Shown here one piece after another: positions 38,294 through 62,374 of a stretch of 64,000 nt of DNA (positions within the stretch are counted from its first letter, which is position 1; each line of letters begins with the position of its first letter). The DNA comes from Candidatus Omnitrophota bacterium (GTDB taxonomy: Bacteria > Omnitrophota > Gorgyraeia > Aquiviventales > Aquiviventaceae), in NCBI GenBank assembly GCA_023247255.1, contig JAHFGV010000006.1, positions 14,231 to 78,230 on the forward strand, given 5' to 3'. The notes under the pieces are model-generated. The model was not told where the DNA came from, made no database searches, and worked only from the letters and a program-made list of their open reading frames with translations. A program made the translations under genes and the position numbers.

Positions 38294-38553
38294 TAACGGC
38301 TAAGCAACAGCAAGTCTTGGGATACATCACGCATTACGTCATGGAGCATCAGCGTGCGCCGCTGATCCGTGAGATTCAAGAAGGGTGTCAGATCAGGTCC
38401 TATAAATCCGCGATTGACCGTTTAAGCGCCCTGGAACGCAAGGGGATCATCAAGCGTCTTTCCAACAAGCATCGCGGCATCCGCTTGCTTCAACAACCCA
38501 CCGCAGGCTCCCCAGCCGTGGAAGCAGTCCCAGCCCTTCAGGAGGTTCGCTAA
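38290..38553 (+). CDS. Stand-alone LexA-type winged-helix DNA-binding domain protein (no S24 peptidase domain)
   Basis: MITAKQQQVLGYITHYVMEHQRAPLIREIQEGCQIRSYKSAIDRLSALERKGIIKR matches the LexA N-terminal DNA-binding domain pattern; only 87 aa. Confidence 0.5.
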   Translation: MITAKQQQVLGYITHYVMEHQRAPLIREIQEGCQIRSYKSAIDRLSALERKGIIKRLSNKHRGIRLLQQPTAGSPAVEAVPALQEVR

Positions 38554-39632
38554 TGTTCAAAGATGGAGAGATCAGGGAGCCGAATAACTTAAGCTTTTTG
38601 AATGGGAAGACCCTTTTGGTTACCGGAGCAACCGGCTCATTTGGTCAACAGTTTACAGAGGCGGTGTTACGCGATAGCCATGTGAAGGCTCTGCGGATTT
38701 ACTCACGCGATGAGCTGAAACAGCACCATATGAGCCAGCTGTTTTCGGATGAGCGGTTGCGATTTTTTATTGGGGACGTGCGCGATAAGGAACGTTTGCG
38801 ACGAGCCATGCACGGTGTGGATATGGTCGTCCATGCCGCAGCGCTTAAGCAGGTTCCTGCCTGTGAATACAATCCTTTCGAGGCCGTGAAGACTAATATC
38901 CTCGGGGCAGTTAACATCATTGATACGGCCATTGACTGTAACGTGCAGCGAGTGATTGCCCTAAGTAGCGATAAGGCTGTGAATCCGATCAACCTCTATG
39001 GAGCGACTAAATTATGCGCGGAGAAGCTGTTTGTACAAAGCAACGCCTATTCTGGGCTGGATGGGACCCGTTTCAGTTCGGTTCGGTATGGCAACGTCGT
39101 GGGCAGCCGGGGCAGTGTTATCCCCTTGTTCCTTCAACAACGCACCCAGAGACTGGTTACCGTAACCGATAGGCGGATGACGCGTTTTTGGATCACCTTG
39201 GAACAGGGGGTGAACTTTGTCTTGCGGACCCTGGAGTTGATGCACGGCGGGGAAATCTTCGTGCCGAAGATTCCGAGCATGAACATCATGGACCTAGTCG
39301 ATGCGATTGCGCCCGATTGCGAGGTTCAATTTACCCAGATTCGTCCTGGTGAAAAACTCCATGAAATACTCATCTCCTCGGATGAGGCGCGACACACCCT
39401 GGAATTCCCAGACATGTTTGTCATTCAGCCCATGCATCCTTGGTGGAAATGTGATAACTGGAAAGAGGGCAAAGCCCTTCCGGACGGATTCGTTTACAGC
39501 AGCAACGCCAATCCACAGCAACTCAGTGTGGAGATTCTTCGGAACATGGTCGCTAGTCTCGGTGAGATGGAAGAATTCGCATCAACCGCAACGGGAGGCG
39601 CACCTGTCATGAAAGACACCAATGGCGACTGA
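38553..39632 (+). CDS. pseB: UDP-N-acetylglucosamine 4,6-dehydratase (inverting), PseB/FlaA1
   Basis: LLVTGATGSFG, ...SSDKAVNPINLYGATKLCAEK...: polysaccharide-biosynthesis CapD/PseB signatures; TAATG coupling. Confidence 0.8.
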   Translation: MFKDGEIREPNNLSFLNGKTLLVTGATGSFGQQFTEAVLRDSHVKALRIYSRDELKQHHMSQLFSDERLRFFIGDVRDKERLRRAMHGVDMVVHAAALKQVPACEYNPFEAVKTNILGAVNIIDTAIDCNVQRVIALSSDKAVNPINLYGATKLCAEKLFVQSNAYSGLDGTRFSSVRYGNVVGSRGSVIPLFLQQRTQRLVTVTDRRMTRFWITLEQGVNFVLRTLELMHGGEIFVPKIPSMNIMDLVDAIAPDCEVQFTQIRPGEKLHEILISSDEARHTLEFPDMFVIQPMHPWWKCDNWKEGKALPDGFVYSSNANPQQLSVEILRNMVASLGEMEEFASTATGGAPVMKDTNGD

Positions 39633-40851
39633 GGTTATCAGCTCCAAACCTGTTTTTAGCCATCCAGCGCTTGCGCTTTATGGAGGAACACCGATCAGGA
39701 CTCGGTTTTTGCCCTATGGGCATCAATCGATCGATGAGAGCGCTATCCAGGCGGTCGTCCAGGTGCTTCGTTCTGATTGGATCACCACAGGCCCAAAGAT
39801 TGCGGAATTCGAAGAGGCTATTGCGGCCGTTGTTGGAGCGCGGCAAGCCGTTGTGTTTAGCTCTGGAACTGCCGCTTTGCACGCCGCAGCTTTCGCGGCA
39901 GATCTTGAGCCTGGGCAGGAGGCGATCACAACGCCGCTTACGTTTTGCGCAACAGCCAATTGTATGCTCTATCAGGGAGCAAGACCTATTTTCGCTGACG
40001 TCTGTCCTGATACGCTTCTGATTGATCCCTGTGAGGTGGCTCAACGCATCACGCCTCGCACGAAAGCAATCCTTCCCGTCGACTACGCAGGGCATCCCGC
40101 GGCGTTAGGGGAATTCATGGAGCTAGCCAACCGTCATGGGCTTGTGATCATCGAAGACGCGACTCATGCCCTGGGAGCCACACATAAAGGGCGCAGGGTT
40201 GGAAGCATCGCGCACATGACGGTATTTAGCTTCCATCCAGTGAAGCACATCACGACAGGAGAAGGGGGCGCTGTCACCACAGACAATGTCCAGCTTGCCC
40301 ATCGGCTACGGAAGTTTCGGAATCATGGAATCGACTACGACCCACAGCTTCGTCAACACCACGGAACCTGGTATTACGAAATGGTGGAGCTTGGATATAA
40401 TTACCGATTGACGGATATCGGCTGTGCGCTTGGGCTTTCACAGTTGCGATCCCTTGAGGCGAATCTTGCCAGACGACGCGCTCTAGCGGACCGGTATACA
40501 GCGGCCTTAGCCGATCTTCCTGGCTTGACTCCCCCGGTGGTTCATACAGACGTTGAACCCGCATGGCATCTGTATCCTGTTCGGCTTGAATTAGCGAAAC
40601 TGCGCGTGGGGCGGGAAGAAATCTTTCGGGCTTTGCGCGCGGAGAATATCGGCGTCAACGTGCATTACATCCCCGTGCATCTTCATCCCTACTATCGCGC
40701 TCGATTCGGATATCGTGGGGGGGAATACCCCGTGGCTGAAATGGCCTACGAGCAATTGATCAGCCTGCCGATGTTTCCTGGCATGAGCGACTCAGATATC
40801 GAGGACGTCATCGAAGCACTGAGAAAGGTCATGAGCTACTATGCCCGGTGA
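39622..40851 (+). CDS. pseC: UDP-4-amino-4,6-dideoxy-N-acetyl-beta-L-altrosamine transaminase, PseC-like (DegT family)
   Basis: LPYGHQSIDESAIQAVVQVLRSDWITTGPKIAEFEEA... is the PseC-type N-terminus; PLP-Lys region FSFHPVKHIT. Confidence 0.75.
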   Translation: MATEVISSKPVFSHPALALYGGTPIRTRFLPYGHQSIDESAIQAVVQVLRSDWITTGPKIAEFEEAIAAVVGARQAVVFSSGTAALHAAAFAADLEPGQEAITTPLTFCATANCMLYQGARPIFADVCPDTLLIDPCEVAQRITPRTKAILPVDYAGHPAALGEFMELANRHGLVIIEDATHALGATHKGRRVGSIAHMTVFSFHPVKHITTGEGGAVTTDNVQLAHRLRKFRNHGIDYDPQLRQHHGTWYYEMVELGYNYRLTDIGCALGLSQLRSLEANLARRRALADRYTAALADLPGLTPPVVHTDVEPAWHLYPVRLELAKLRVGREEIFRALRAENIGVNVHYIPVHLHPYYRARFGYRGGEYPVAEMAYEQLISLPMFPGMSDSDIEDVIEALRKVMSYYAR

Positions 40852-40957
40852 TTCCTAAGGACATTGCCTTGCGCTTGTGGCTCGTTTGTTCACGAGCATC
40901 CACATTGTGCCTGGCATGACCGTGTGGTATTTTGAAACATACGAGAGGGGATGAAAC

Positions 40958-41950
40958 ATGTCTGTCGAGATCATCGCGGAAGTTGCGCAAGGCTACGCAG
41001 GCGATCCAACGCTCGCACGGCTGCTTGCACGCTCAGCTGTACTTGCCGGAGCCGATGCCGTGAAATTTCAACTCGTCTATGCCGATGAGTTGGCCACGCC
41101 TAATTACCCCTATTACGCCCGATTCCAAAAACTCCAGATGCCCCAGGACGCCTGGCACTGTGTCGTGCAAGAAGTTCGGGCAGGGAAACGGCGGCTCTAT
41201 CTCGACGTCTTTGGCGAGCGCAGTCTTGGCGAAGCCAAAGCCATGGGTGCTGACGGAGTGAAGATTCACAGCACCGATTTCTTCAACGACGACTTGGTGC
41301 GCGAGGCGCTGGCGTGCATGAGCCGCGTTTTTGTATCGCTCGGGGGTATTAGCGCGGATGAATTAGAGGAATTCCTGCACAGGCACCATCTGAGACCGAG
41401 TGATTCCCTCTGTCTGCTCTACGGATTCCAGGGATTTCCAACACCGATTGACTCCAACCATCTGCAGCGACTAGGTACCTTACGAGTGCGATTCCCAGGG
41501 TATCCGTTCGGGTTCATGGATCACACAGACGGTAGCGATGAGGAAACCATGACCGTTTCCTTGGTAGCGTTGGCGTATGGCGTGCAGTGTATCGAAAAGC
41601 ACATCACACTGGATCGCACCCTGCAACTAGAAGATTACATCTCGGCGCTTGACGGGGAGCACTTTCGTCACTTCGTGCAGCGTGTGCGCCAGCTGGAGAG
41701 CGCTTTGGGAACGGAGTCGCTAGAGCTGAGCGCACCTGAGTGGGAATACCGACGCAAAGCCGTGAAGACCATCGTTGCAAAACAGCATCTTAAGCAGGGC
41801 GATGTGGTGACACTCAATCAACTGTGCTTCAAGCGGGCAGCAGAGAAGAGTTCCGAAACATCGATCTACCGGCTCGATGAGGCAGTAGGCCGGACGCTAG
41901 TGGCCGACGTCGCCCCAAACCAATCACTGACCCGGGAAATGGTTCGATGA
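40958..41950 (+). CDS. NeuB-family aldolase-type synthase paralog 1 (divergent)
   Basis: IAEVAQGYAGD...AGADAVKFQL, GFMDHTDG, IEKHITLDR parallel the NeuB motifs IAEIGxNHNG...GxxAVKFQ, GFSDHS and IEKHFTLD. Confidence 0.6.
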   Translation: MSVEIIAEVAQGYAGDPTLARLLARSAVLAGADAVKFQLVYADELATPNYPYYARFQKLQMPQDAWHCVVQEVRAGKRRLYLDVFGERSLGEAKAMGADGVKIHSTDFFNDDLVREALACMSRVFVSLGGISADELEEFLHRHHLRPSDSLCLLYGFQGFPTPIDSNHLQRLGTLRVRFPGYPFGFMDHTDGSDEETMTVSLVALAYGVQCIEKHITLDRTLQLEDYISALDGEHFRHFVQRVRQLESALGTESLELSAPEWEYRRKAVKTIVAKQHLKQGDVVTLNQLCFKRAAEKSSETSIYRLDEAVGRTLVADVAPNQSLTREMVR

Positions 41951-42831
41951 GACGACTCGTCGCGACTCTCGCCTGCCGAGTGCAGGGCAGTCGGCTTTAC
42001 GGCAAGCCGCTGCAGCATTTGGATGTAGAGAACAGGGTGACGATTTTAGAGCACCTGATTAGTCTTATCCAGACGCTGCCATGCATCGAGGCTGTAGTCT
42101 TGGGCATCGCTCGAGGAGTAGAGAATGAACCGTTTCGGGACATCGCACGACGCCGGGGCATTGCCTTCATCATGGGAGATCAGCGGGACGTTTTGCAGCG
42201 GTTGATTCAGTGTGGGCGCAAGGCCCGTGGCACCGATGTGTTTCGGGTCACGACGGAGTCGCCGTTTTTCTACTACGAAGTCGTTGCGGACGCCTGGCGA
42301 CGACACATCGAAGCAGGCAATGACGTGACTACCTTCGACGGGGTACCCGCGGGCTCGTTTTTCGAAATCTATAGTCTCGAAGCCTTGGAGCGATCACACC
42401 GACTGGGGGATAAGAGGCATCGGTCTGAATATTGCAGCCTCTATGTCCGTGAACATCTCAAGGACTTTCAAGTTGAGGTGTTACCGATTCCTCCAGAGCT
42501 TGAACGCCTGGATCTGCGCTTCACGGTCGACTACCCGGAGGATCTGGTAGTCTGCCGTCAGGTGTACGAACATTTCAAAGCCCAGGCGCCACGCCTGCCT
42601 CTTCGCGACATTATTCGGTATGTAGATAGCCAGCCTCAGTTGAAAGCCCTAGTAGTACCCTATGTCGTCTCAAAACGACTCTGGTTTCTTCCCAGCCGTG
42701 AGCCAACTTGCTCTGCCGCCACCTGGTCTGCCGGTCAGAACCAGGCATCTAGCAATCTTAGCAGGCTGCGGAAAAACGCCACGCTTGCTCAAGGCTCGAG
42801 GCTTTTGGCTAGAGATCCAACGAATCGTTGA
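41947..42831 (+). CDS. Cytidylyltransferase of the PseF/SpsF/NeuA-like family (CMP-nonulosonate synthetase candidate)
   Basis: N-terminal RLYGKPL...nucleotide-binding region and C-terminal RFTVDYPEDL motif typical of CTP_transf_3 enzymes. Confidence 0.6.
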   Translation: MRRLVATLACRVQGSRLYGKPLQHLDVENRVTILEHLISLIQTLPCIEAVVLGIARGVENEPFRDIARRRGIAFIMGDQRDVLQRLIQCGRKARGTDVFRVTTESPFFYYEVVADAWRRHIEAGNDVTTFDGVPAGSFFEIYSLEALERSHRLGDKRHRSEYCSLYVREHLKDFQVEVLPIPPELERLDLRFTVDYPEDLVVCRQVYEHFKAQAPRLPLRDIIRYVDSQPQLKALVVPYVVSKRLWFLPSREPTCSAATWSAGQNQASSNLSRLRKNATLAQGSRLLARDPTNR

Positions 42832-42932: not shown

Positions 42933-43988
42933 ATGGTTTCGCATATCCAAATCGGAGAACGTCGGGTGGGTCAAGGTGAGTCCGCCTACATCATTGCCGA
43001 AGCGGGGGCCAACCACGACCGCGACCTGAAGATTGCGCACCGGTTAATCGACGTCGCAGCCGAGGCAGGGGTGGACGCAGTGAAATTTCAGACCTACCGC
43101 GCTGAAACGTTGTACTCGCGTTTCACCCCTCGTCTAAAAGAGATGGATGAATTTAACCGTTCCCCTGCTGGAGAAACGCCATTTGAACTCATTAAACGCA
43201 TCGAGCTGCCGTGGGAGTGGCAGGCAGAGTTGCATGATCACGCGGTGGATCGGGGTATCGATTTCCTGTCCACGCCCTTTGATCTTGAAGCGGTGGATGA
43301 GCTTGCGAAGTTTGGCGTGAAAGCGTTCAAGATCGCGTCGTATGAAATCGTCTACTACGCCCTATTGAGGGCAGCGGCTAAGTATCAACGTCCCCTGATT
43401 GTCTCGACTGGAAACAGTAGCTTGGCCGATGTGGAGCTAGCGGTGATGACGATCCGTGAGACCGGGAATCACCAACTCATTTTGCTGCATTGTATCAGCC
43501 AATATCCGGCCCGGTTTGAGGACCTGAACCTGCGTGCTATGCAAACGCTCGCCCACGCATTTGCTATGCCTGTGGGGTTCTCCGATCATACCCTTGACAA
43601 CACAGCAGCTGTGCTTGCAGTTGGGCTTGGGGCGTGCTGTTTTGAAAAACACTTCACCCTCGATCGCCGTCGTAGAGGACCCGATCACCCAAGTGCGCTT
43701 GAACCGGACGAGCTGGGTAAATACGTCCAAGCGATTCGAAATGCGGAGAAGGCCTTGGGTTCTTCAGTGAAACAAGTGCAGCCCTCAGAGGAGGAAAACC
43801 ACAGACTGGGTCGGCGAAGTCTTCATGCCTTAGTGGATATCTCGGAAGGAACCCGCATTACGGCAAAGATGTTGACGGTTAAACGCCCTGCCTTGGGCAT
43901 TCCTCCAAGCCAAGAGCCTCTCGTGATAGGGCGAGTCGCCAAACGAGATATTCGCGCCGATGAGTGGATCACATGGGAAATGATCTGA
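42933..43988 (+). CDS. pseI: Pseudaminic acid synthase PseI / NeuB family (paralog 2, canonical)
   Basis: IIAEAGANHDRDL...GVDAVKFQTY, STPFD, GFSDHT, FEKHFTLD, C-terminal SAF domain. Confidence 0.8.
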   Translation: MVSHIQIGERRVGQGESAYIIAEAGANHDRDLKIAHRLIDVAAEAGVDAVKFQTYRAETLYSRFTPRLKEMDEFNRSPAGETPFELIKRIELPWEWQAELHDHAVDRGIDFLSTPFDLEAVDELAKFGVKAFKIASYEIVYYALLRAAAKYQRPLIVSTGNSSLADVELAVMTIRETGNHQLILLHCISQYPARFEDLNLRAMQTLAHAFAMPVGFSDHTLDNTAAVLAVGLGACCFEKHFTLDRRRRGPDHPSALEPDELGKYVQAIRNAEKALGSSVKQVQPSEEENHRLGRRSLHALVDISEGTRITAKMLTVKRPALGIPPSQEPLVIGRVAKRDIRADEWITWEMI

Positions 43989-43994
43989 TGGGTC

Positions 43995-44918
43995 TTGCGT
44001 TGGAAAAACTGGAACTTCCTTCAAGAAAACAAGCGTAAGATGGCGTTGAGCGTGGTCATCACCGGGGCCTCTGGTTTTTTGGGTCAGGCCTTACTCGATA
44101 CAGTCACCACGAAGTGGCCCACGGCCAAGGTCTACCCACTCCATTCGCCCCGAGCCGGGGGCATCGATCTGGCGCACCCAGATGCGCCGGATCAATTGGC
44201 GGCCACGATCCATTTGTCAGACCCCGGCGAGACCATCTTGATCCATGCTGCAGCGAAAATCGCCTGGGATAGCCCGGATGGCTTACTGGACAATGCCGCG
44301 ATGGCGATTCATGTCGCCGCGTGGGCGCAAACTGCAAGGATTGGTTTTTGTGTGCTGGTGAGCACGGTGAGCGTGTATGCGCCCCTTACAGCAACTGATG
44401 TCCAGACGCCGTGCAAGCCCACGACGATGTATGGCCTTGGAAAATGGGCCGCGGAGGAAGTCTGGCGTCTGCGGGTGCCGGAAAAGCGCAGCGCCATTGT
44501 CCGGTTGGCTGGGCTCTGGGGATGGCAGCGTATGTCCACGTTATTTTGGAACCGCCTCCTTTTGGCGGCGGGGCAGGGGTCTGCGGCTGCCGAGCGGTCT
44601 GTGGTCTATCGAAGCCGAAGTGTCCGAAACTACATCTCTGTCCATGAAGCCAGCGACTGCCTCCTCCAAGTTGGGACAAACCGCATGAGTGGACTATTCC
44701 TTGGCGCCGGGCGGGATCCTGTCACCACCGGCTCCTTTGTCCAGGCACTCCAAGCACTGTCCGACTCCAGGCTCTGTGTGGATTGGGCGGACGATGGAGG
44801 AACGGATGAGCGCCTCTATCATCCAAGCCCCGAGCTGCTCCCGTGTCTTGCGCCCTTTCCGGAAGTGCTCTCGCGTGTGTGGTCCAAGCAGCCGGATTGG
44901 GTCTTGCAACGCTCATGA
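43995..44918 (+). CDS. NAD-dependent epimerase/dehydratase family protein (atypical SDR)
   Basis: VVITGASGFLGQALL, YGLGKWAAE; the start may be the Met at 44040. Confidence 0.5.
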   Translation: MRWKNWNFLQENKRKMALSVVITGASGFLGQALLDTVTTKWPTAKVYPLHSPRAGGIDLAHPDAPDQLAATIHLSDPGETILIHAAAKIAWDSPDGLLDNAAMAIHVAAWAQTARIGFCVLVSTVSVYAPLTATDVQTPCKPTTMYGLGKWAAEEVWRLRVPEKRSAIVRLAGLWGWQRMSTLFWNRLLLAAGQGSAAAERSVVYRSRSVRNYISVHEASDCLLQVGTNRMSGLFLGAGRDPVTTGSFVQALQALSDSRLCVDWADDGGTDERLYHPSPELLPCLAPFPEVLSRVWSKQPDWVLQRS

Positions 44919-45607
44919 AAATCGGACTCATGTCAGACATCCATGGGAACAGTCCTGCGCTGGAAGCAGTGCTTCCAGTGCTGTTCGCTGAGACGGATCA
45001 GGTGTTCTTCTTGGGCGATTTATGTGGATATTACCCATTCGTGGAGGAGTGCATCGCCCTCTGGGATCACGAGCGGGTTGTCGGCGTTCGCGGCAACCAT
45101 GATCAGATACTCCTGGACTGCCTTCAACATCACACCCCTCCTCCGACAACTTACCAAACCCGATATGGATCGGCGTTGGCACGAACCCTTCAACAGATCT
45201 CTCCCTCCTCAGTGGCACTTCTCCAGGGACTTCCGATTTCTCGAACGCTCACGATCAATGGCAAGGTCCTTGCGCTCTACCATGGAACACCTTGGGACCC
45301 ATTGGAAGGTCGCTTGTACCCAAACGATGACCACCTCGATCGCCTGGTGGATCTGCCTGCGGATATCATCCTGTTAGGTCATACCCACTACCCTTTCACC
45401 AGACGGTATCAGGACAAACTGATTGTGAATCCAGGTTCAGTGGGACAACCTCGGGATCGAAGCGGCGCCAGTGTGGCGATTCTGGATCTAGCAACAGAAG
45501 TGGTGGAACACCGTCGTGTGTTATTCAGTCCTCAGCGACTCATTGATGATGCGCGGCAGCATGATCCTGGAGTGCCGTACTTGGTCGAGGTGTTGACCCG
45601 GCGATGA
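44915..45607 (+). CDS. Metallophosphoesterase (calcineurin-like, YfcE/MPP family)
   Basis: MKIGLMSDIHGN...GDLCGY...RGNHD...GHTH: the MPP metal-binding motifs; ATGA coupling. Confidence 0.7.
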   Translation: MKIGLMSDIHGNSPALEAVLPVLFAETDQVFFLGDLCGYYPFVEECIALWDHERVVGVRGNHDQILLDCLQHHTPPPTTYQTRYGSALARTLQQISPSSVALLQGLPISRTLTINGKVLALYHGTPWDPLEGRLYPNDDHLDRLVDLPADIILLGHTHYPFTRRYQDKLIVNPGSVGQPRDRSGASVAILDLATEVVEHRRVLFSPQRLIDDARQHDPGVPYLVEVLTRR

Positions 45608-51648: not shown

Positions 51649-51894
51649 ATGAGTCAGACGAAGTTGGCTCGCTGTTTCGCAGAAGCGCTTGGAATTCAGG
51701 AACAGGCCGTAACAGACGAGTTGGCATATCAGACCATCAAAGAATGGGATTCCGTGCGGCACATGGCGCTTGTGGCAATCATCGAGCAGACGTTCAACGT
51801 CATGCTCGACACCAACGACATCATCGCCATGAGCAGCGTGGGAAAGGCCAAAGCGATCTTGGCGAAGTATGGCATCGACTGTGATGCTGCTTAA
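51649..51894 (+). CDS. Acyl carrier protein
   Basis: ~80-aa helical protein with the phosphopantetheine-attachment context ...KEWDSVRHMALVAIIEQTF... (DS motif). Confidence 0.7.
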   Translation: MSQTKLARCFAEALGIQEQAVTDELAYQTIKEWDSVRHMALVAIIEQTFNVMLDTNDIIAMSSVGKAKAILAKYGIDCDAA

Positions 51895-54039: not shown

Positions 54040-55166
54040 TGAGCGCAATCGAGCTTGAGCTTCCGGTCATAAGTGATTTTTTTGACCTTCCACCCTATGG
54101 GCTGCCACAATCGCAGAAGGCCCAGATGCTCGTGATTCGTCTGCGGCAACTGTGTTGGCATCATTATGAGCGCTGCGTCATCTACCGACGACTCATCGAG
54201 CGGGTGTTTGGGGGCGAGGACGCGCTGAACTTCGAGCGATTGGAAGAAGTCCCCTTCATCCCCGTCCCATTGTTCAAGACGCATGCGTTGCGCAGCGTTC
54301 CAGCGGAGGCCGTTGTGAGAACCCTCGCCTCAAGCGGCACGAGCGGTCAGGTTCTCAGCCGCGTCGAGCTCGATCGTGAGACCAGTCAGCGCCAGACTCA
54401 AGTGCTGGTAAAAATCCTCCAACATTTCCTCGGGCCTCGTCGCTCCCCCATGGTCATCTTTGATCGGAAAGTGGCACTCGATCAGCCAGGTCCCTATCCG
54501 GCAAGGGTCGCGGCTCTATTGGGGATGATGCCCTTTGGGCGCGATCCGTTCTTCGCCTTAAAGGAAGACTTGTCGCTGGATATTGAGGGTTTGAGCGCCT
54601 ATCTTGCACGGGCGAGTGGAGCGGGCGGGGAGCGCGTGGTCGTCTTTGGGCTTACTGCGATTCTCTGGCAAGCGCTGGTTTTAACTATGGAGCGAGAGGG
54701 AAAGAAGCTACATATCCCTCAGGGTGTGCTCATCCACGCGGGAGGGTGGAAGAAACTTCAGGATGCCGCTGTGGGAGCCGAGGAGTTCCGGCAGAGGGTC
54801 CAAGCCGTCACAGGAATCTCGCGCATCCTCAACTTCTACGGGATGGTAGAGCAGGTGGGAAGCATCTTCTTTGAAAATCCGCGGCATTACTTGCAGGCCC
54901 CTGTCTATGCTGAGGTTATCATCCGTGATCCCATAACGCTGCGGCCTTTACCCGTCGGCGGCGTGGGACTGGTTCAGGTGCTCAGCGCGATTCCCACGAG
55001 TTATCCCGGCCACTCTCTCCTTACTGAGGATATGGGGGTCCTTCGCGGAGTGGATGATCCAACGACAGGGATGAATGGACGGTACTTTGAAATCCTGGGA
55101 CGCGTTCCGCAAGCTGAGGTGCGTGGATGCAGCGATACCTACCCGACTCAACACTCAACGACGTAG
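54039..55166 (+). CDS. luxE: LuxE-family acyl-protein synthetase
   Basis: ~375 aa with SSGTSGQVLSRVELD and overall LuxE-like organisation; start overlaps the ligase stop (TAATG). Confidence 0.6.
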   Translation: MSAIELELPVISDFFDLPPYGLPQSQKAQMLVIRLRQLCWHHYERCVIYRRLIERVFGGEDALNFERLEEVPFIPVPLFKTHALRSVPAEAVVRTLASSGTSGQVLSRVELDRETSQRQTQVLVKILQHFLGPRRSPMVIFDRKVALDQPGPYPARVAALLGMMPFGRDPFFALKEDLSLDIEGLSAYLARASGAGGERVVVFGLTAILWQALVLTMEREGKKLHIPQGVLIHAGGWKKLQDAAVGAEEFRQRVQAVTGISRILNFYGMVEQVGSIFFENPRHYLQAPVYAEVIIRDPITLRPLPVGGVGLVQVLSAIPTSYPGHSLLTEDMGVLRGVDDPTTGMNGRYFEILGRVPQAEVRGCSDTYPTQHSTT

Positions 55167-55297
55167 AGCTTGGCAGTCAGGGCCCTCGCGCTGAAGAAAT
55201 CCTCAATCGTCAGCAGAGCCCCACCCCCGATGCTTCGCTTTGTCCCTTGAAATCGCCGACAGGCGATTTCAGGGATCCAATCCCCGACAAACTCCAC

Positions 55298-56557
55298 ATG
55301 TCAGGGAACGAAGCAAAGCCTGGGGGTGCTATGGCGGGGCTGCGCATCCTGGCTCCCCGAAAATCTGAGAGTCCTCTCGCGGATTGGCTGGCTTCGTGCC
55401 GGTTTTCAAACACCCATCCCTTTGCGGCTTCACGCATCCAGTTGCTTGGGGCATTCTCACAACGCATCCTCAAAGATCCGATTCTTCGCGATGAGCCCTC
55501 AAGCGTAGCCCTGGCCTACTACTTACGCCCAGCGAACATTACGAAAATCGCAACGCATGCTCAAGCACGCGCCAAGCTTGATCCTTCCGTTCTCTGGGTG
55601 CCTTGCGGTGGGGTGTTCCATGTGGCTCCGGCTAATGTGGAGACTTTTTTCATCTACCCTTGGGCTTTGTCCTATCTTTGCGGGAACAACAATCTCGTTC
55701 GCCTCTCCCTGGAGGAGCAACCGGTAACGATGCGGCTGCTTGAGTGCCTAAACACTCTGATGGAAACCGAGGAGGAACTCTCTCATACAAACCGGTTTGT
55801 GACCTACCCGCACGATCCTGAGATTACCAGGCTGTTCTCCGACTGGTGCGCCCATCGCATCATCTGGGGAGGGGATGAGGTCATTAGAGTCCTGCGCTCG
55901 ATTCCACTGAGCCCTCATGCGACCGAGCGTGTCTTTGGCTCGAAATTCTCCTACGCCGTCATTTCGGCAATGTCCTTTCAGGAAGCTGATGAAGCGACGC
56001 GGCAGCAGGTCATCTCCCGGTTTTTCAACGACATGTTCTGGTTCAACCAGATGGCCTGTTCCTCTCCCCACGTGGTATTCTGGGTTGGCACGAAGGCCGA
56101 TGGGGCGCGTGCAGTGGCAGCGTTCAATCCATTGCTGGGTGCTGAGGTTTTGCGTCGGGGATATGCCCTGCCACCACAGCTTAGCGTCCGGCGGCTCTCG
56201 CAGGCCTTTGAACTTGCCATCCAGGATGACGTTCGGGTTGATCTTAAGCATCCGGGATTCGCGAGTATCGATGTGCCACAGCTGTCTGTGTTGCGCAAAG
56301 AGCCTTATGGAGGAGGACTGTTGCACCATGTCCAGATCGATCGTTTGGATCGACTCCTTGAAGTCGCAGCGCCCAAGGACCAGACCATCGTCCATTTCGG
56401 CTTTCATCCTGATGAACTGCAAAGTCTGGCGTTTCGCATCGGCTCTCGAGGGGTGGATCGTCTTGTGCCTATCGGTGAGGCACTGACATTTGAGGTGGTA
56501 TGGGATGGACAGGATATGATCAGCGATGGTTTACGGAAGGTCGTGATTCGATGCTAA
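55298..56557 (+). CDS. luxC: LuxC-family acyl-CoA (acyl-protein) reductase, putative
   Basis: ~420 aa following luxE, the canonical LuxC partner position; start uncertain (55298 or 55331). Confidence 0.5.
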   Translation: MSGNEAKPGGAMAGLRILAPRKSESPLADWLASCRFSNTHPFAASRIQLLGAFSQRILKDPILRDEPSSVALAYYLRPANITKIATHAQARAKLDPSVLWVPCGGVFHVAPANVETFFIYPWALSYLCGNNNLVRLSLEEQPVTMRLLECLNTLMETEEELSHTNRFVTYPHDPEITRLFSDWCAHRIIWGGDEVIRVLRSIPLSPHATERVFGSKFSYAVISAMSFQEADEATRQQVISRFFNDMFWFNQMACSSPHVVFWVGTKADGARAVAAFNPLLGAEVLRRGYALPPQLSVRRLSQAFELAIQDDVRVDLKHPGFASIDVPQLSVLRKEPYGGGLLHHVQIDRLDRLLEVAAPKDQTIVHFGFHPDELQSLAFRIGSRGVDRLVPIGEALTFEVVWDGQDMISDGLRKVVIRC

Positions 56558-57987
56558 CTGAAACTGCCAAGCCGCGTGTCCTGATTGGACTGCCAAGCGA
56601 CATCTTCCTTAGAAATTTTGTGGAGACGAAGGCGTTTACGAGTCTGAGTGAACGCTTTGAGGTCTTCTGGTTTACCACCGAGGCGGTTCGCCATGCGCTG
56701 CCAGAACTTCCCGGCTTTACCCGCGTGGAATCCTGCAAGATAGATCCACGACGGGATATGATCCGCTACCATCTGCGTTGGTTGGCGGTTTTTGCTGGAC
56801 GTTCACGCAGTAGGCTTATGCGGTTGAAGGCCTTGAGCGTGGGATCCAGGCGCGAGCGGTGGCCGTATACGCTTCTGAGTGCGCCGGGTGTCTGGCCGAT
56901 TACGGATGCGCTCGTTGAGGCATGGCTAGGTCAGAACCAGTCGCTTGCGGCGATCTTCGATGCGGTCAAGCCGGACGTGGCGGTCTTCCCCTCGCAGGGC
57001 AATGATTCCTTCGCCATCGACATCATGAAAGTAGCAAAGTCGCGGAGGGTTCATACGGTAATGCTCAACTACAATTGGGACAATATGGGATCCAAAGGCG
57101 CCATGAGGATCAAGCCCGATCGGCTCTGTGTCTGGGGAGAAGATATGGCAGCCTTGGCGCGGCAGGTCCATCACCTGCGGCCAGAGCAGATTCGGATCAT
57201 CGGAGCCGCCCAGTTCCAGCAATATTTTGATCCCGAGCAGATGGCTGCCGCATCACGCGCCGCGGCGCAATCCCCTCAGGAGCCACCGCGGCTTTTATTT
57301 GCGGGAGCATCTCGAGGTCATCCTGAGGCTCGGTTTCTTAAGACCCTCGATGAAGCCATCGAGACCCATCGCTTGCCAGCGCTTCAGATCATCTATCGGC
57401 CGCATCCCTGGCGTGCGCCTCGTCCGCATGAAAACCCCTTTCACGCCTATGGCTACCGTCATATCACGATGGATCGGCAAGTCGCTGGTCAGTTTATGGT
57501 CGATGATATGAACGCACCCACCAAGCGCGTCGATTACACGTTTGCGCCCTCGATTGCGTACAACGCCGAATTGCTCCACTCAATCCGTGGGGTCATAACG
57601 CCTCTGTCGACTCTCTCCTTGGAAGCAGCCTTGGTCGGCGTACCGGTGCTGGCGATTCACTTTCCCGAGGAACGTTGGCTGAAGGATGCGCTGGATAACT
57701 TTGAACACTTACAGCGGATGTGCCGTCAGGTACCCGGCGTCGTAATCTGTCGCGAGGAACCTCGCTTCCTCGAGGCTGTCCGGCAACTCTTGGAACTGGG
57801 AGGTGATCCGACGCTTCCGGCTCGGATGCGAGAAGCCATCAAGCCGATTCTCTATGCCGATGGCGCCACGACCTATGCGGATCGGCTCGCCAGCGTTATT
57901 GAGGAAGTCTTGGGAAAGCGAGAGAATCTATCCAAGATGCAAGAGCCTGTGGAGTCCTGTATTCCCGTTGAAGGCTGGGTGAGGTAA
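56551..57987 (+). CDS. Unknown ~480-aa soluble protein, possibly a GT-B-fold transferase (candidate nonulosonate or glycerophospho-transferase)
   Basis: Two Rossmann-like alpha/beta halves; no confident family match from sequence reading; 7-bp overlap with luxC. Confidence 0.35.
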   Translation: MLTETAKPRVLIGLPSDIFLRNFVETKAFTSLSERFEVFWFTTEAVRHALPELPGFTRVESCKIDPRRDMIRYHLRWLAVFAGRSRSRLMRLKALSVGSRRERWPYTLLSAPGVWPITDALVEAWLGQNQSLAAIFDAVKPDVAVFPSQGNDSFAIDIMKVAKSRRVHTVMLNYNWDNMGSKGAMRIKPDRLCVWGEDMAALARQVHHLRPEQIRIIGAAQFQQYFDPEQMAAASRAAAQSPQEPPRLLFAGASRGHPEARFLKTLDEAIETHRLPALQIIYRPHPWRAPRPHENPFHAYGYRHITMDRQVAGQFMVDDMNAPTKRVDYTFAPSIAYNAELLHSIRGVITPLSTLSLEAALVGVPVLAIHFPEERWLKDALDNFEHLQRMCRQVPGVVICREEPRFLEAVRQLLELGGDPTLPARMREAIKPILYADGATTYADRLASVIEEVLGKRENLSKMQEPVESCIPVEGWVR

Positions 57988-58025
57988 GTCGAAGATGGAA
58001 CCAGATAACCCCGCCATTTCGCCCC

Positions 58026-58283: not shown

Positions 58284-58297
58284 CACAGGCTCATCCC

Positions 58298-59359
58298 ATG
58301 AAGCTCCACAGACCCCATCAGCCCATTACGATAGGGACTCAAACAATCGGCCAAGGCTTGCCCTGTTTCATCGTCGGTGAAGTCGCTCAGAGCCATGATG
58401 GCAGCCTCGGCCAGGCCCATGCGTTCATCGATGCGATTGCAAGCGCCGGCGCTTGCGCAGTGAAGTTCCAGACGCACGTCGCTGCGGCAGAGAGCACCGT
58501 GCAGGAGCCATGGCGAGTACCTGGCAGCGGGCAGGATGCGAGTCGCTATGCCTATTGGAAGCGGATGGAGTTTAGCGAACCTCAGTGGGTAGAGTTGAAA
58601 TGTCATGCGCAGGAACGCGGCCTGGTATTTTTGAGCTCACCCTTTTCCTTGGAGGCAGTGGATCTGTTGGAACGCGTCGGGATGCCGGCATGGAAGGTCG
58701 GCTCCGGTGAGATCAGCAATAGGGTTTTGTGCAGACGTCTCGCATCTTCTGGTCTTGCGGTGTTTCTTTCAACAGGCATGAGCCCTTGGCATGAAGTGGA
58801 TGAGGCCGTGGCGTATTTCCGCGCACGGAACATTCCTTTAGTGGTGTTGCAGTGTAGCTCTGTGTATCCTTGTCCACCGGAGAAAATCGGCCTGAATGTA
58901 TTAGCGCAATTGCGAGACAGATACGGATGTCTTGTGGGGCTTTCGGATCACTCGGGAACCATCTATTCAGGATTGGCAGCCGCAGCGGTGGGTATTGAAG
59001 TGCTCGAGGTGCACGTGACATTAAGCCGGGAAATGTTCGGGCCGGATGTTCAGGCTTCCATCACGACTGCCGAATTGCGTCAACTGGTGGATGGGGTACG
59101 CGTGATTGAAGCCATCCGGTCACACCCCGTCGATAAAGATCAGATGGCCAAAGAACTTAAGCCGCTGCGGGATATTTTTATGAAGAGTATCGTGGCCAAG
59201 ACAGAACTTCCGGCAGGGACTATTTTGCAGGAAGAACACCTCATCCTTAAAAAACCCGGCACAGGAATTCCTGCGAGTCGCTTGGGGGAGGTAGTGGGCA
59301 AGCGACTGGTTCGCTGCCTCCGCTCGGATGAGAGGGTGCTTGAGGCTGACCTGCAATGA
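58298..59359 (+). CDS. NeuB-family synthase paralog 4 (divergent, SHDG variant of the NHNG motif)
   Basis: CFIVGEVAQSHDGSL...GACAVKFQTH, SSPFS, GLSDHS, C-terminal SAF-like domain. Confidence 0.65.
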   Translation: MKLHRPHQPITIGTQTIGQGLPCFIVGEVAQSHDGSLGQAHAFIDAIASAGACAVKFQTHVAAAESTVQEPWRVPGSGQDASRYAYWKRMEFSEPQWVELKCHAQERGLVFLSSPFSLEAVDLLERVGMPAWKVGSGEISNRVLCRRLASSGLAVFLSTGMSPWHEVDEAVAYFRARNIPLVVLQCSSVYPCPPEKIGLNVLAQLRDRYGCLVGLSDHSGTIYSGLAAAAVGIEVLEVHVTLSREMFGPDVQASITTAELRQLVDGVRVIEAIRSHPVDKDQMAKELKPLRDIFMKSIVAKTELPAGTILQEEHLILKKPGTGIPASRLGEVVGKRLVRCLRSDERVLEADLQ

Positions 59360-61230
59360 TCGAAGATCGGACAAATATCGATTTGCGGAATTTATGGATA
59401 AACGATAAACAACGACGGCTCCTGAAACTAATCGCCTGGTTGATGGCTGTTGCCGTTGTCACAGTCATTGCTGCCTATTGGCAAGTGAGGCCATGGGTTA
59501 TCCAAGCAAAGACACCTACGGCAGAGGTAAGTTTTTCTGCGAATCGTCGGCAGGTGCATGTAGGTTCATGCATGCGTCTTCGCTGGAATGTAACTCCAGC
59601 CCAGCCGGTGTGGCTGAATGGACAGTCGCAAAATGCCGTTGGAGAGCAATCGCTCTGTCCCCAACGGGAGGGAACTTTTGAAGTTAGCCTAAAGGTGTCT
59701 TCCTCAACCGGAGCAGGCAAGAGCTATGTGCTTCCGATTCAGTCCGTTCAACTTGAGCAGGATCGATGGGGAGGGGCAGTACGCATGCTCTTGGCGTTTA
59801 CGCTGCTTGGACTCATAGTGATCTTGGGTGAGTTATTGATCACCCTGCTCGCCCGAGGGCAGAAAAGCCCAGAGGTTCCTGGTGATTTTTCGAAGGATGC
59901 AGCAAGCCCTCTCAAAACCTACAGTTTTGCATGTGGGCTCATCCTCATTGCTGGTCTTGCGTGTTTGATTTTACAACCGCTTGCCCGACTCCTTCCCTTC
60001 GATCCGGATAACGTACTCACCCTGTCCATGGCGCAAGAACCTCCAGGCCACTGGTGGACTGGGCAGACTTTGTCCTATTTACCTGTCTATCGCCCGATCC
60101 CTTTCACCTTGACATGGCTGCAATATCAATTCATGGGGTTGGAACCCATCGGCTATTTCGTAGTCAACGCCTTGATTCTGATTTCCTGCGGGGTTGCGCT
60201 TTTTGGCTTGCTTTACCCTATCATTGGCAGGTTCATTTGCGCCCTGGCAGCGGCATTTCTGTTTTTGACCGATCCACGAACCATGCCGAGCGTGTATTGG
60301 ATCGGTGAACGTCAATCCAGCCTGGCAGGATTATTGGGTCTGCTGGCCTTAGGGTGGCTTTGGACTCGAACCCATCGGCCCAACAAAAAATCGACAGGAT
60401 TCTTCGGACAGTTTCTTGTGCCGGGATTGCTGCTGATGGGTTCGATCCTGAGTAAAGAATATGGACTTGCGTTTCTCTTAGCCGTCAGTGTGCACGCATG
60501 GCTGCGACGCTACACCTTCTGGAAAAGGTATGTCGGGGTTTGCTTTTTGATAGGTGCCCTTTATGTATTCATACGCGTTGGAACATCGACCATGAGCTTC
60601 AAGGTATACAGCGAAGATATGGGATTTTTATTTTGGACCCGACAGGTTACATACAGCAGTCTGCCATTCTTTGAACGGTTAGCGCAGTATAGCTACAATA
60701 TCGTGGCTACCTTCGTGGGAACTATCGTTCCGGTTTTTTTCAGCGGTTTTGGCGTGCTGAAAGCCCCAAGCCTGCAGGGTTCGATCCAGTTGCTTTTGTT
60801 ATCACCGGTGCTGCTTTGTTGTTGGATTGCCCTTCGGACCAATCCCCGTTTGGCCCTGGCGTTTTTTAGTTTGGTGATCGGCAATGCCCTTCTGAGCTTT
60901 CTCCTCTATCGTGGTCGCAACCATCTGATCGGTCTGATGGGGTTTTATGCCACGGCGGCCGTTGGTATGAGCTGGCTGTTGTCAAGGATTCGCTGGCGAG
61001 CGCGTGCGGGAATTGCATGGGGTATGGTCTTGTTTTTGACTGGATGGCAGGCTATGAAATATCGAACGGCCCTTGCGCAAACCTATGTAGCACCCATGAA
61101 TGAAGTGGATCCGTGCCTGGCCTTACGTACGAAAGAAGTCTCCATGAACACCGTGGAAGAAATCAAGCGACGCTTTGGGCTACCCAATCCTGCGTGCCAG
61201 GGATTCCCTCGTGGTCATGAAACGACGTAA
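59356..61230 (+). CDS. Large polytopic membrane protein, probable GT-C-fold glycosyltransferase (ArnT/PMT-like)
   Basis: One N-terminal TM helix, a ~110-aa periplasmic-looking segment, then at least 11 TM helices; ATGA-coupled to upstream neuB. Confidence 0.4.
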   Translation: MIEDRTNIDLRNLWINDKQRRLLKLIAWLMAVAVVTVIAAYWQVRPWVIQAKTPTAEVSFSANRRQVHVGSCMRLRWNVTPAQPVWLNGQSQNAVGEQSLCPQREGTFEVSLKVSSSTGAGKSYVLPIQSVQLEQDRWGGAVRMLLAFTLLGLIVILGELLITLLARGQKSPEVPGDFSKDAASPLKTYSFACGLILIAGLACLILQPLARLLPFDPDNVLTLSMAQEPPGHWWTGQTLSYLPVYRPIPFTLTWLQYQFMGLEPIGYFVVNALILISCGVALFGLLYPIIGRFICALAAAFLFLTDPRTMPSVYWIGERQSSLAGLLGLLALGWLWTRTHRPNKKSTGFFGQFLVPGLLLMGSILSKEYGLAFLLAVSVHAWLRRYTFWKRYVGVCFLIGALYVFIRVGTSTMSFKVYSEDMGFLFWTRQVTYSSLPFFERLAQYSYNIVATFVGTIVPVFFSGFGVLKAPSLQGSIQLLLLSPVLLCCWIALRTNPRLALAFFSLVIGNALLSFLLYRGRNHLIGLMGFYATAAVGMSWLLSRIRWRARAGIAWGMVLFLTGWQAMKYRTALAQTYVAPMNEVDPCLALRTKEVSMNTVEEIKRRFGLPNPACQGFPRGHETT

Positions 61231-62374
61231 AATCTGTGTAGTCGTGACGGCCCGTCCCAGCTACGCCCGGATCAAATCCGCGCTGCGTCATATCCAAGCG
61301 CATCCCGATCTCGAGCTACAACTGGTGGTCGCGGCCTCAGCGTTGCTGGATCGTTATGGCAGCGCCGTCGCCTACATTGAGCAGGATGGATTCGACATCG
61401 CAGCCCGGGTCTACATGGTGCTTGAAGGGGGCAATCTCACCACGATGGCCAAGACGACCGGGCTTGGCATCATCGAGTTGGCCACGGCCTTCGATAACCT
61501 CAAGCCGGACGTCGTGGTGACGATCGCGGATCGCTACGAAACGCTTGCCACGGCGCTGGCGGCCGCTTACGCCAACATCCCTGTGGTTCACGTTCAGGGA
61601 GGAGAGGTGAGCGGGTCCATCGATGAAAAGGTCCGGCACGCCGTGACCAAGCTATCGGACATTCATTTTGTGGCCAATCAGCAGGCAGCCGATCGGGTCA
61701 TACGCATGGGGGAGCATTCCGATCGCGTGTTTGTCACAGGCTGCCCCTCGATTGATCTCGCAGCCGAGGTGCTTCAAAACGCCGAGCTCGATTTTGATCC
61801 TTGTGAGCGATTCGGTGGAGTGGGACCGCGCGTGGATACGCGGGAAGATTATCTGATCGTCATGCAGCATCCGGTGACCACCGAGTACGAGGATGCCCAG
61901 CATCATGTTCAGGAAACCCTTCACGCTGTGCTTGAGCTGGGGATTCCCACCCTGTGGTTCTGGCCCAACGGTGATGCTGGGTCCGATGGGACGTCAAAAG
62001 GGATTCGCATCTTTCGCGAAGAGCATCATGAGATCCCCATCCACTTTTTTCGGCATATGGGACCTGAGGAATTTCTACGCGTGGCCTACCATAGCCGATG
62101 CCTGGTAGGCAACTCAAGCGTGGGGATTCGGGAATGTTCTTTCCTCGGTATTCCCACCGTGAATATCGGATCCCGACAGACCGGGCGCGACCGGGCAGGA
62201 AACGTCATCGACGTGGATTATAACCGGGGGGCGATTGTCGAGGCTGTGCGCAAGCATCTGGCCAATGGCCGATACCATTCGGATTCTCTCTACGGAGACG
62301 GCTCCTCCGGAGGCCGCATCGCCCAACGCTTGGTGAGTGTTCCCTTAACCATTGAGAAACGTCTGACCTATTGA
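61217..62374 (+). CDS. neuC: UDP-N-acetylglucosamine 2-epimerase (hydrolysing), NeuC/LegG-like
   Basis: KICVVVTARPSYARIKS...PDVVVTIADRYETLA...PVVHVQGGE: NeuC-type signatures. Confidence 0.75.
   Translation: MKRRKICVVVTARPSYARIKSALRHIQAHPDLELQLVVAASALLDRYGSAVAYIEQDGFDIAARVYMVLEGGNLTTMAKTTGLGIIELATAFDNLKPDVVVTIADRYETLATALAAAYANIPVVHVQGGEVSGSIDEKVRHAVTKLSDIHFVANQQAADRVIRMGEHSDRVFVTGCPSIDLAAEVLQNAELDFDPCERFGGVGPRVDTREDYLIVMQHPVTTEYEDAQHHVQETLHAVLELGIPTLWFWPNGDAGSDGTSKGIRIFREEHHEIPIHFFRHMGPEEFLRVAYHSRCLVGNSSVGIRECSFLGIPTVNIGSRQTGRDRAGNVIDVDYNRGAIVEAVRKHLANGRYHSDSLYGDGSSGGRIAQRLVSVPLTIEKRLTY

Follow-up and report, generated by a model that had tools for sequence, protein, structure and literature searches.

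Nonulosonic acids shape how bacterial surfaces are recognized by phages, immune systems and neighbouring cells, and the enzymes that make them are sought for glycoconjugate production. In Campylobacter jejuni, NeuB paralogs make different nonulosonates, and acyl carrier protein (ACP), HAD and acyl-modifying genes are interspersed with them. The flagellin glycosylation locus of this species holds both PseI and LegI, with NeuB1 encoded elsewhere, and several NeuB paralogs per organism or locus are also known from Leptospira (PMC5109656). Furthermore, the legionaminic acid (Leg) pathway of Bacillus subtilis pairs the NeuB-family synthase SpsE with SpsF, a putative cytidylyltransferase (PMC7439481), and the pseudaminic acid (Pse) operon of B. 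thuringiensis and the B. cereus group (Pen, Pal, Pam, Pcp, Phy, Pdi, Ppa) combines an aminotransferase, a SAF or NeuB-like domain with an SpsF-like cytidylyltransferase, PseG and, further along, PseI (PMC5109656; PMC7439481). In the NeuC-NeuB-NeuA modules of Neisseria meningitidis and Escherichia coli K1, the genes for a 2-epimerase, a synthase and a cytidine monophosphate (CMP) transferase are grouped. Here, these systems are compared with a 64,000-nucleotide stretch of DNA from a Candidatus Omnitrophota bacterium (assembly GCA_023247255.1, contig JAHFGV010000006.1, positions 14,231 to 78,230; hereafter the window), in which four NeuB-family synthase genes, N1 to N4, lie in one surface-glycan cluster and N1 is followed directly by an SpsF-like cytidylyltransferase gene, p294. 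Unless a locus number (L008 and similar, for the comparison sequences) is given, positions are those of the window, and all features described there as part of the cluster lie on the plus strand.

The window shares the gene order of the Bacillus Pse operon, and in both a TagF-like gene adjoins. In B. cereus BC38B, however, the cytidylyltransferase carries an entire N1-like domain as a fusion, whereas N1 and the cytidylyltransferase of the window are separate, overlapping genes; in addition, PseB takes the place of Pen and Pal, there is no PseH, and two further synthases and many tailoring genes are added. Several NeuB paralogs occur in one organism in C. jejuni as well, but the window contains no Maf or flagellin genes and no open reading frame (ORF) that reaches the LegB or LegC cut-off. 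C. jejuni is not known to possess an N1-type paralog or an SpsF-type transferase. The pairing of a synthase with an SpsF-type enzyme recalls B. subtilis, yet the partner of the SpsF-like gene in the window is N1, which is 23% identical to SpsE; it is N2 that has SpsE (1VLI) as its best solved-structure match (E 7.5e-62, about 41% identity), with a bootstrap of 18 for the corresponding tree link. The N4 module is grouped in the NeuC-NeuB-NeuA fashion and differs from it in three respects: N4 lies below the NeuB_NnaB cut-off, has lysine at position 314 and lacks an equivalent of Asn74, a membrane protein is encoded between synthase and epimerase, and deacetylase, GFO oxidoreductase and methyltransferase genes are added.

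An earlier, sequence-only reading of the window had taken four NeuB paralogs to imply four different ulosonic acids. That count is not borne out, since a single PseB/PseC/PseG set and a single NeuC are available for the hexoses and two classes of product are supported. It appears moderately probable that N1 to N4 mark not four independent pathways but a Pse route through N3, an activation unit formed by N1 and p294, a second Pse-like synthase (N2) and a separate module around N4 of neuraminic/legionaminic (Neu/Leg) type. Together, these would yield CMP-nonulosonates of no fewer than two classes, with the Pse type perhaps represented by two or three variants. The division into two predicted sugar classes, Pse-type and Neu/Leg-type, is well supported. 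Judging from this window, a count of NeuB paralogs suggests more sugars than are actually made.

All four proteins exceed the gathering score of the NeuB family in Pfam (PF03102, 22.1 bits), in agreement with the sequence-only reading. N1 (40958-41950) scores 115.9 bits (E 2.7e-33) and has a weak SAF domain; clear SAF domains are found in N2 (42933-43988; 295.2 bits), N3 (50299-51375, longest ORF from 50284; 298 bits) and N4 (58298-59359, longest ORF from 58280; 209.4 bits). Alignment with N. meningitidis NeuB (NmNeuB, 1XUU, whose numbering is used throughout), C. jejuni PseI (CjPseI, 8H2C) and B. subtilis SpsE (1VLI) showed that E25, K53, Q55, K129, S132, S154, H215, E234, H236 and D247 are kept in all of them. 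The residues named as catalytic, metal-binding or substrate-binding are E25, E134, E234, H215, H236, K53, Q55, K129 and D247 (PMC11339185; PMC8208679), and the sole change in the catalytic and metal set among the four paralogs is E134D in N1, a substitution found in 29% of environmental NeuBs (PMC8208679). At the positions that bind the phosphate of phosphoenolpyruvate (PEP), namely S132, S154, S213 and N184, and at R314 of the SAF domain, N2 and N3 are canonical. N1 carries S213M and N184Q, both near-invariant in its clade, and retains R314, while N4 has R314K, with the same lysine in 120 of 120 relatives. The catalytic residues are invariant in 120 relatives of N1 and invariant or nearly so in 120 relatives of N4 (E25 in 118).

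The paralogs are 24-39% identical to one another, and they fall into four separate deep clades of a neighbour-joining tree of 177 sequences (100 bootstraps). The tree takes NmNeuB, CjPseI and SpsE as references. N3 groups with CjPseI (bootstrap 92), N2 belongs to a tight clade (100), N4 forms a clade of its own (100) that is weakly sister to NmNeuB (29), and N1 lies in an 86-member clade (100) that includes no characterised member. The four paralogs are ancient, intact and predicted to be catalytically competent. Two explanations that the sequence-only reading had raised are rejected: a non-catalytic N1 or N4 by the conservation of the core residues in both, and a recent duplication of a single PseI by the identities and the tree.

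Within the Pse route, roles were assigned to PseB, PseC, PseG and N3 on the basis of equivalog hidden Markov models (HMMs), and the cut-offs for these four steps of the CMP-Pse pathway are all passed. PseB, an inverting UDP-GlcNAc 4,6-dehydratase (38553-39632; Pfam Polysacc_synt_2), scores 488.2 bits on TIGR03589 (cut-off 407.75), the PseC aminotransferase (39709-40851 with the start set by the gene caller, longest ORF from 39622) scores 470.1 bits on TIGR03588 (cut-off 423.5), and the UDP-sugar hydrolase PseG (46641-47693) scores 218.4 bits on TIGR03590 (cut-off 153.55). The PseI model TIGR03586 (cut-off 340.25) is reached by N3 only, at 459.3 bits, with N2 at 314.1, N4 at 192.2 and N1 at 96.5. 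The listing of PseB, PseC and PseG as canonical genes in the sequence-only reading was thus correct, but its two synthases were exchanged: the gene at 42933 had been named PseI and that at 50299 an extra paralog, and it is the latter that passes the model and falls in the CjPseI clade. The gene that it had called PseF-like is p294, which gives no match to the PseF equivalog TIGR03584; on this model, a CTP_transf_3 gene located downstream of the window reaches 104.4 bits against a cut-off of 205.7.

The products of PseB, PseC and PseG would together provide a hexose of the 2,4-diamino-2,4,6-trideoxy-L-altrose type, which N3 would condense with PEP. Upstream of N3 lies a gene for a HAD-family hydrolase (49617-50312; HAD_2 72.2 bits), which scores 120.6 bits on the subfamily model TIGR02253, below its cut-off of 169.75. 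This arrangement had suggested a 9-phosphate route to ketodeoxynonulosonic acid (KDN) or N-acetylneuraminic acid (Neu5Ac); the suggestion is unsupported, because the neighbouring synthase is PseI and a homologue of the HAD gene occurs in none of the 80 related N1-type loci described below. The acetyltransferase PseH, which had already seemed not obvious, is missing at the level of curated cut-offs: no real or alternative-frame ORF between 38.5 and 63.5 kb gives a PseH or GNAT match in NCBIfam or Pfam. Since no PseH is found, N-acylation of the 4-amino group is provisionally assigned to two ATP-grasp ligases and/or to a set of ACP, FabG, AMP-ligase, LuxE and LuxC genes.

The second component of the cluster is the pair formed by N1 and p294 (41947-42831), whose genes overlap by 4 bp. 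The divergent, SpsF/Pcp-type protein p294, a candidate CMP-Pse synthetase, matches CTP_transf_3 at a borderline 22.7 bits (cut-off 22.6). Its family matches more firmly: 14 of 15 members hit PF02348 (CTP_transf_3; best E 1.2e-16), the family profile matches the PDB entry 6OEW, 'Cytidylyltransferase' (E 1.5e-15), and a KdsB-like motif, ACRxxGSRLYGKPLQ, is conserved. By these matches, the p294 family is clearly a predicted cytidylyltransferase. N1 itself, which has more than 800 relatives at E <1e-10, differs from NmNeuB by N29G, H30Y, T110D, E134D, C182G, N184Q, Y186F, S213M and F288K, and the signature of its clade (G29, Y/F30, D110, G182, Q184, M213, K/R288) is sharply conserved. Moreover, N1 has lost by deletion the beta2-alpha2 loop, which in NmNeuB bears the Asn74 that contacts the C6-OH of N-acetylmannosamine (ManNAc) (PMC11339185).

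When one genome per GTDB species was scanned, 80 N1-type loci were obtained, which were annotated with the window proteins; 35 of them have full flanks, and together they span many bacterial phyla plus archaea. An SpsF-like cytidylyltransferase ORF resembling p294 is present in 73 of the 80 loci. Among the fully flanked ones, a cytidylyltransferase, a second NeuB of PseI-like or N2-like type and a class-III aminotransferase each occur in 33/35. The recurrent module consists of PseB, PseC, an optional GFO oxidoreductase, N1, a 250-aa protein homologous to p294, the class-III aminotransferase and PseG, followed by the second NeuB. This second synthase is either N3-like or N2-like, and the window is unusual in holding both. 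The two-synthase architecture is conserved across phyla (56/80 loci); NeuB ORFs number one in 19 loci, two in 56, three in 2 and four in 1, so that 3 of the 80 have three or more NeuB genes in a stretch of 21 kb. A NeuB count of four is therefore rare, not unique. Another locus with four NeuB-family ORFs within 21 kb is found in a metagenome-assembled genome of Bacteroidia (L085:422-18586); they are one PseI, one N2-like ORF and two N1-like ORFs, both of which have a p255-like gene behind them.

The traits of the type unit are all present in the window, namely the signature residues, the 4-bp overlap and PseB and PseC directly upstream of N1. In three genomes, an N1-like protein and a cytidylyltransferase are fused in a single ORF: B. 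cereus BC38B (585 aa), Priestia megaterium (586 aa) and a Methanosarcinales archaeon (606 aa). The B. cereus fusion scores 152 bits for NeuB and 79 bits for CTP_transf_3, and the 60 best matches of the N-terminal domain of the Bacillus fusion all lie within the N1 clade. In a search of plasmids, no free-standing N1-type gene was found; this search returned just adjacent pairs and the fusion from Bacillus. In the ordinary Pse operon of the B. cereus group, the slot equivalent to the N1/p294 unit is taken by a 331-aa SAF and CTP_transf_3 protein. We take this protein to be Pcp, and Pcp of B. thuringiensis was reportedly demonstrated to be a CMP-Pse synthetase by Li and colleagues in 2015. The fusion ORFs are located at L096:8992-10749 (the BC38B plasmid NZ_CP109873.2), L029:3635-5392 and L032:9968-11785; the B. 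cereus record annotates the C-terminal 334 aa only, as 'NTP transferase domain-containing protein'.

On these grounds, the earlier treatment of the gene at 40958 as an independent route gives way to a pairing: the gene stands beside a cytidylyltransferase in 73/80 loci, is fused to one in three genomes and is accompanied by a second, conventional synthase in 33/35. Adjacency and fusions show the pairing, and its mechanism is put forward as a proposal. N1 and p294 would represent the split form of a NeuB-like/SpsF-Pcp-type cytidylyltransferase unit, in which p294 would form the CMP-sugar and N1 would be coupled to it, most probably either as another Pse-type synthase or as a subunit that captures substrate and passes it on to p294. 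We infer that the two are functionally coupled and centred on CMP activation, and that N1 alone is no sign of a fourth sugar.

A more far-reaching proposal is that N1-type proteins, instead of acting as conventional synthases on their own, are dedicated partners, as subunits or fused domains, of SpsF/Pcp-type cytidylyltransferases in a synthase-activase unit. The remodelled pocket of this unit (beta2-alpha2 loop deletion, S213M, N184Q, F288K/R) could then synthesise or bind a sugar different from Pse5Ac7Ac, perhaps an ulosonic acid not yet described, and at least three distinct CMP-ulosonates would be expected from the island. We regard this extension as rather unlikely, and it is kept in consideration because higher-carbon CMP-ulosonates have been reported, an unassigned one in Magnetospirillum (preprint 10.64898/2026.04.20.719630). 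A literature search returned no description of the N1 clade, of its pairing or fusion with SpsF/Pcp-type cytidylyltransferases or of a conserved two-synthase Pse cluster, and the abstract and residue-conservation section of a large phylogeny of nonulosonate synthases do not single the clade out (PMC8208679). The clade extends over at least 80 GTDB species of many phyla, archaea included, and travels with a CMP-activating enzyme to which it is sometimes fused; with Priestia megaterium, B. cereus BC38B and Kiloniella laminariae among its cultured carriers, the clade is open to experiment.

N2 misses the models for both characterised routes, with 366.6 bits on the Neu5Ac synthase equivalog TIGR03569 (cut-off 399.65) and 314 bits on TIGR03586 (cut-off 340), and is best described as a Pse-like or SpsE-like synthase. 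Its position is informative through the genes that follow it: SDR1, an RmlD-like reductase or epimerase of the short-chain dehydrogenase/reductase (SDR) type (44040-44918; Pfam Epimerase and RmlD_sub_bind), a YfcE-like metallophosphoesterase (44915-45607; Metallophos_2 92.8 bits), which recurs in 8 N1-type loci, and ATP-grasp ligase 1 (45604-46644; ATPgrasp_Ter, NF009402). N2 is 72-76% identical to the sole synthase of two Pse-like clusters, L094 and L095, and has relatives at up to 83% identity. In L095, the order is PseB (71% identity to the window protein), PseC (61%), an aldo-keto reductase, CTP_transf_3, Aminotran_3, an N2-type synthase (72%), a methyltransferase, SDR1 (53%), metallophosphoesterase (59%), ATP-grasp ligase 1 (62%), PseG and GNAT, so that SDR1, metallophosphoesterase and ATP-grasp ligase 1 are syntenic between the window and L095. 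The block from N2 to PseG thus matches an L095-type unit, whose sole synthase is of the N2 type, and N2 is therefore read as a second Pse-like synthase. It probably serves a differently configured or acylated hexose.

In L094, a CTP_transf_3 and class-III aminotransferase (Aminotran_3) fusion of 689 aa (L094:5577-7646) lies about 2.4 kb upstream of the N2-type gene. No account of a class-III aminotransferase in Pse clusters was found in the literature search; its linkage to CTP_transf_3 suggests that amination may take place at the level of the CMP-sugar.

The fourth synthase belongs to a module of its own. N4 is assigned to the Neu/Leg type as a member of a distinct clade, with 298.8 bits on TIGR03569, a model that none of the four paralogs reaches and on which N2 comes closest. 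The N4 gene is overlapped by that for p624 (59356-61230), a membrane protein with about 10 hydrophobic segments by hydropathy scan, which in turn overlaps the gene for a hydrolysing UDP-GlcNAc 2-epimerase of NeuC/LegG type (61217-62374, longest ORF from 61175; TIGR03568 385.3 bits, cut-off 235.9). The 624-aa p624 has no Pfam or PDB match, and no homologue occurs in the other N4-type modules or in any of the 80 N1-type loci. Next come p375 (62374-63501), which has a weak GNAT-like segment (Acetyltransf_1 20.0 bits, cut-off 20.7), and the start of a polysaccharide-deacetylase gene that is cut by the window end (63739-64000). The continuation of the contig, seen in L008 and L009, encodes the deacetylase, a 2-hydroxyacid dehydrogenase, a thiamine pyrophosphate (TPP) enzyme, an oxidoreductase of the GFO type, a canonical CTP_transf_3 protein, a methyltransferase and an ABC transporter; the CTP_transf_3 gene (L008:19413-20165) lies some 4.8 kb from the end of the window.

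Because the N4 module has its own CMP-transferase past the window end, the single CMP-transferase that had been counted is an edge effect. By contrast, the proposal that the gene at 58298 and its NeuC-like neighbour form a Neu/Leg-type route distinct from Pse has held, given the TIGR03568 score. A FemAB-like protein had also been proposed; p375 shows no match to FemAB (PF02388), only sub-threshold GNAT matches with E up to 0.1. Single-sequence AlphaFold2 models of p375 and of the putative transferase p495 have low confidence, with a predicted local distance difference test (pLDDT) score of 37.5 and 35.9, respectively. Relatives of N4 are very numerous, and their modules comprise NeuB, an optional GFO oxidoreductase, NeuC, a methyltransferase or deacetylase and CTP_transf_3; LegB, LegC and LegH were found in none of the N4-type modules examined. 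N4, the NeuC-type epimerase and the downstream deacetylase, GFO oxidoreductase, CTP_transf_3 protein and methyltransferase would thereby constitute a separate Neu/Leg-type module. By its sequence features, N4 does not appear to be a textbook Neu5Ac synthase, and Neu5Ac, Leg or another product would all be compatible with it.

Several other explanations have to be weighed against this arrangement. The window derives from a metagenome contig, which might be a chimera joining clusters of different strains. This is highly improbable: the same gene order is found in contigs of separate assemblies and runs, three contig segments of two metagenome assemblies differing from the window at 5 of 20,993, 3 of 14,645 and 0 of 12,337 bases. 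The GC content is even across the region (0.52-0.57), and 4-bp overlaps are common between neighbouring genes, those at the junctions included. On the strength of these near-exact independent contigs, the even GC content and the overlaps, the gene order is taken as real and not as an assembly artefact. Another view is that each paralog heads its own route, to Pse, to KDN or Neu5Ac 9-phosphate through the HAD enzyme, to Leg or Neu and to one further acid. The four deep clades with intact catalytic residues fit it, as does the wealth of tailoring genes (two SDRs, two ATP-grasp ligases, HAD, metallophosphoesterase and acyl-ACP set). It is nevertheless quite unlikely, as the synthase beside the HAD gene is a bona fide PseI, hexoses would have to come from the single PseB/PseC/PseG set and one NeuC, and no ORF of the window attains the LegB or LegC cut-off. 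Furthermore, N1 tracks the cytidylyltransferase and not a precursor pathway, and the BC38B fusion sits in an otherwise minimal Pse operon. Redundancy is the opposite extreme: two or three horizontally acquired types of Pse cluster would have merged into a mosaic in which a single pseudaminic acid is the common product of N1, N2 and N3, leaving Pse and the N4 product as the only output. The sub-operon breaks, which fall exactly before N1, before N2 and after N3, the L095-type character of the block from N2 to PseG and the interchange of N3-like and N2-like enzymes as second synthase, which implies a common role, speak for such a merger. However, N1, N2 and N3 are all intact, their divergence and the distinct pocket residues that they conserve point to different specificities, and pure redundancy would not maintain a two-synthase architecture across phyla, so that this view too is somewhat improbable.

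As for the N4 module, it is possible, if doubtful, that N4 and the NeuC-type enzyme act as LegI and LegG and make legionaminic acid instead of Neu5Ac, from a precursor of the UDP- or GDP-diNAcBac type whose dehydratase, aminotransferase and acetyltransferase would be encoded elsewhere in the island or genome. TIGR03568 does not separate NeuC from LegG; spare genes of the dehydratase/epimerase SDR family and the DegT family lie at 24941-28348, and a GFO oxidoreductase accompanies N4-type modules. N4 also lacks the asparagine that contacts the C6-OH of ManNAc and has lysine in place of R314 (PMC11339185). Against this stand the scores of every SDR and DegT ORF of the window, far below the cut-offs of LegB (TIGR04180) and LegC (TIGR04181), and the N4-type modules of L092 and L093, which have no dehydratase, aminotransferase or acetyltransferase nearby. 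The combination favoured here, a Pse route with an activation unit, a second Pse-like synthase and a separate N4 module, also has points against it. Its derivation is from sequence throughout. No catalytic residue of the N1 TIM barrel is lost in any of the 120 relatives, and in 2 of the 35 fully flanked loci N1 is the sole NeuB; it could therefore work independently, as a conventional synthase with its own product. In addition, the class-III aminotransferase typical of N1-type clusters is missing from the window. The equivalence of p294 and Pcp is argued from operon position and the 2015 report, and the downstream CTP_transf_3 protein falls short of the PseF model by about half (104 bits, cut-off 205.7). 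Finally, N2 and N3 are functionally indistinguishable here, with the low bootstrap of 18 for the link between N2 and SpsE, and, with the departures of N4 from NeuB (the missed NeuB_NnaB cut-off, lysine for R314 and no Asn74 equivalent in the beta2-alpha2 loop), its product may be Neu5Ac, Leg or another sugar.

Between and behind the synthases lie genes for tailoring and transfer. Two ATP-grasp ligases had been noted earlier and are indeed present, at 45604 and 48637/48646; the second has a PylC-like N-terminal domain (48646-49620, longest ORF from 48637; PylC-like_N 94.3 bits, and NF009405 299.6 bits, below cut-off). It follows SDR2, a member of the NAD-dependent epimerase/dehydratase family (47671-48627; Pfam Epimerase 96.4 bits). 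Downstream of N3, an overlapping operon encodes an ACP (51649-51894; PF00550 21.9 bits, cut-off 20.8) with a WDSV motif, a FabG-like ketoreductase (51884-52621; adh_short_C2 215.9 bits), an AMP-forming acyl ligase (52618-54039; AMP-binding 154.4 bits), a LuxE-like acyl-protein synthetase (54039-55166; PF04443 163.3 bits) and a LuxC-like acyl-CoA reductase (55127-56557; PF05893 78.7 bits), with p495 (56500-57987) as its last gene. The acyl-ACP set and the ATP-grasp ligases are candidates for the missing N-acylation, and such unusual acyl-building genes (ACP, LuxE, LuxC, AMP-ligase, ATP-grasp) beside Pse-type and Neu/Leg-type modules make the cluster a plausible source of new N-acyl nonulosonates.

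The TagF-like GT-B protein p495 is a candidate transferase that would use a CMP-linked sugar. Alone it has no Pfam match; its family is large (2,809 representatives at E up to 0.001) and shares an invariant RPHP motif, 12 of 40 members match Glyphos_transf, and the family profile matches TarL (8VA1; E 4.4e-5). Comparison by hhalign with the TagF-like gene preceding the Bacillus Pse operon gave a probability of 97.5%, and a homologue with 25% identity lies inside a NeuB-NeuC-CMP-transferase operon (L041). In the B. cereus group, the gene ahead of the Pse operon (L097:335-1738, L096:3234-4625) is annotated as 'CDP-glycerol glycerophosphotransferase family protein' and has a (K/R)PHPW motif in common with p495. 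This TagF-like protein may be a nonulosonate transferase and not a teichoic-acid enzyme.

The region from 38.5 to 63.5 kb, a nearly gap-free run of about 24 genes on the plus strand, forms the central part of a surface-glycan island that exceeds 50 kb and whose genes all point the same way; the bacterium is uncultured. From 18.6 kb on, the window is devoted to sugar metabolism, with rmlABCD, genes for two NDP-sugar dehydrogenases and a set for a CDP-3,6-dideoxyhexose route of yersiniose-like type. The latter lies directly upstream of pseB (30123-37241) and includes RfbF (TIGR02623) and RfbH (NF011936), both above cut-off, a CDP-glucose-dehydratase-like gene, an acetolactate-synthase-like TPP enzyme, a PanB-like hydroxymethyltransferase and an SDR, followed by a GT2 glycosyltransferase. 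Its DegT, dehydratase and NTP-transferase genes at 30-33 kb (30123-33452) were considered as LegC, LegB and PtmE and ruled out, being RfbH, a CDP-glucose dehydratase type and RfbF. Between this set and the Pse genes, an 87-aa ORF (38290-38553) with a helix-turn-helix of the LexA_DNA_bind type (Pfam) stops exactly at the start of pseB and may encode a local regulator. Further upstream, a 1017-aa ORF (15541-18594) just before the first sugar genes has no NCBIfam match and none in Pfam on record. A 325-aa ORF in the middle of the island (28939-29916), with no Pfam match on record, has an N-terminus (GSGFS...GLP) that looks SIR2-like by eye. In addition, a small gene of the bAvd/23S-rRNA-IVP family occurs among the polysaccharide genes of two unrelated loci, at L008:17953-18309, about 3.3 kb past the window end, and at L011:2371-2736.

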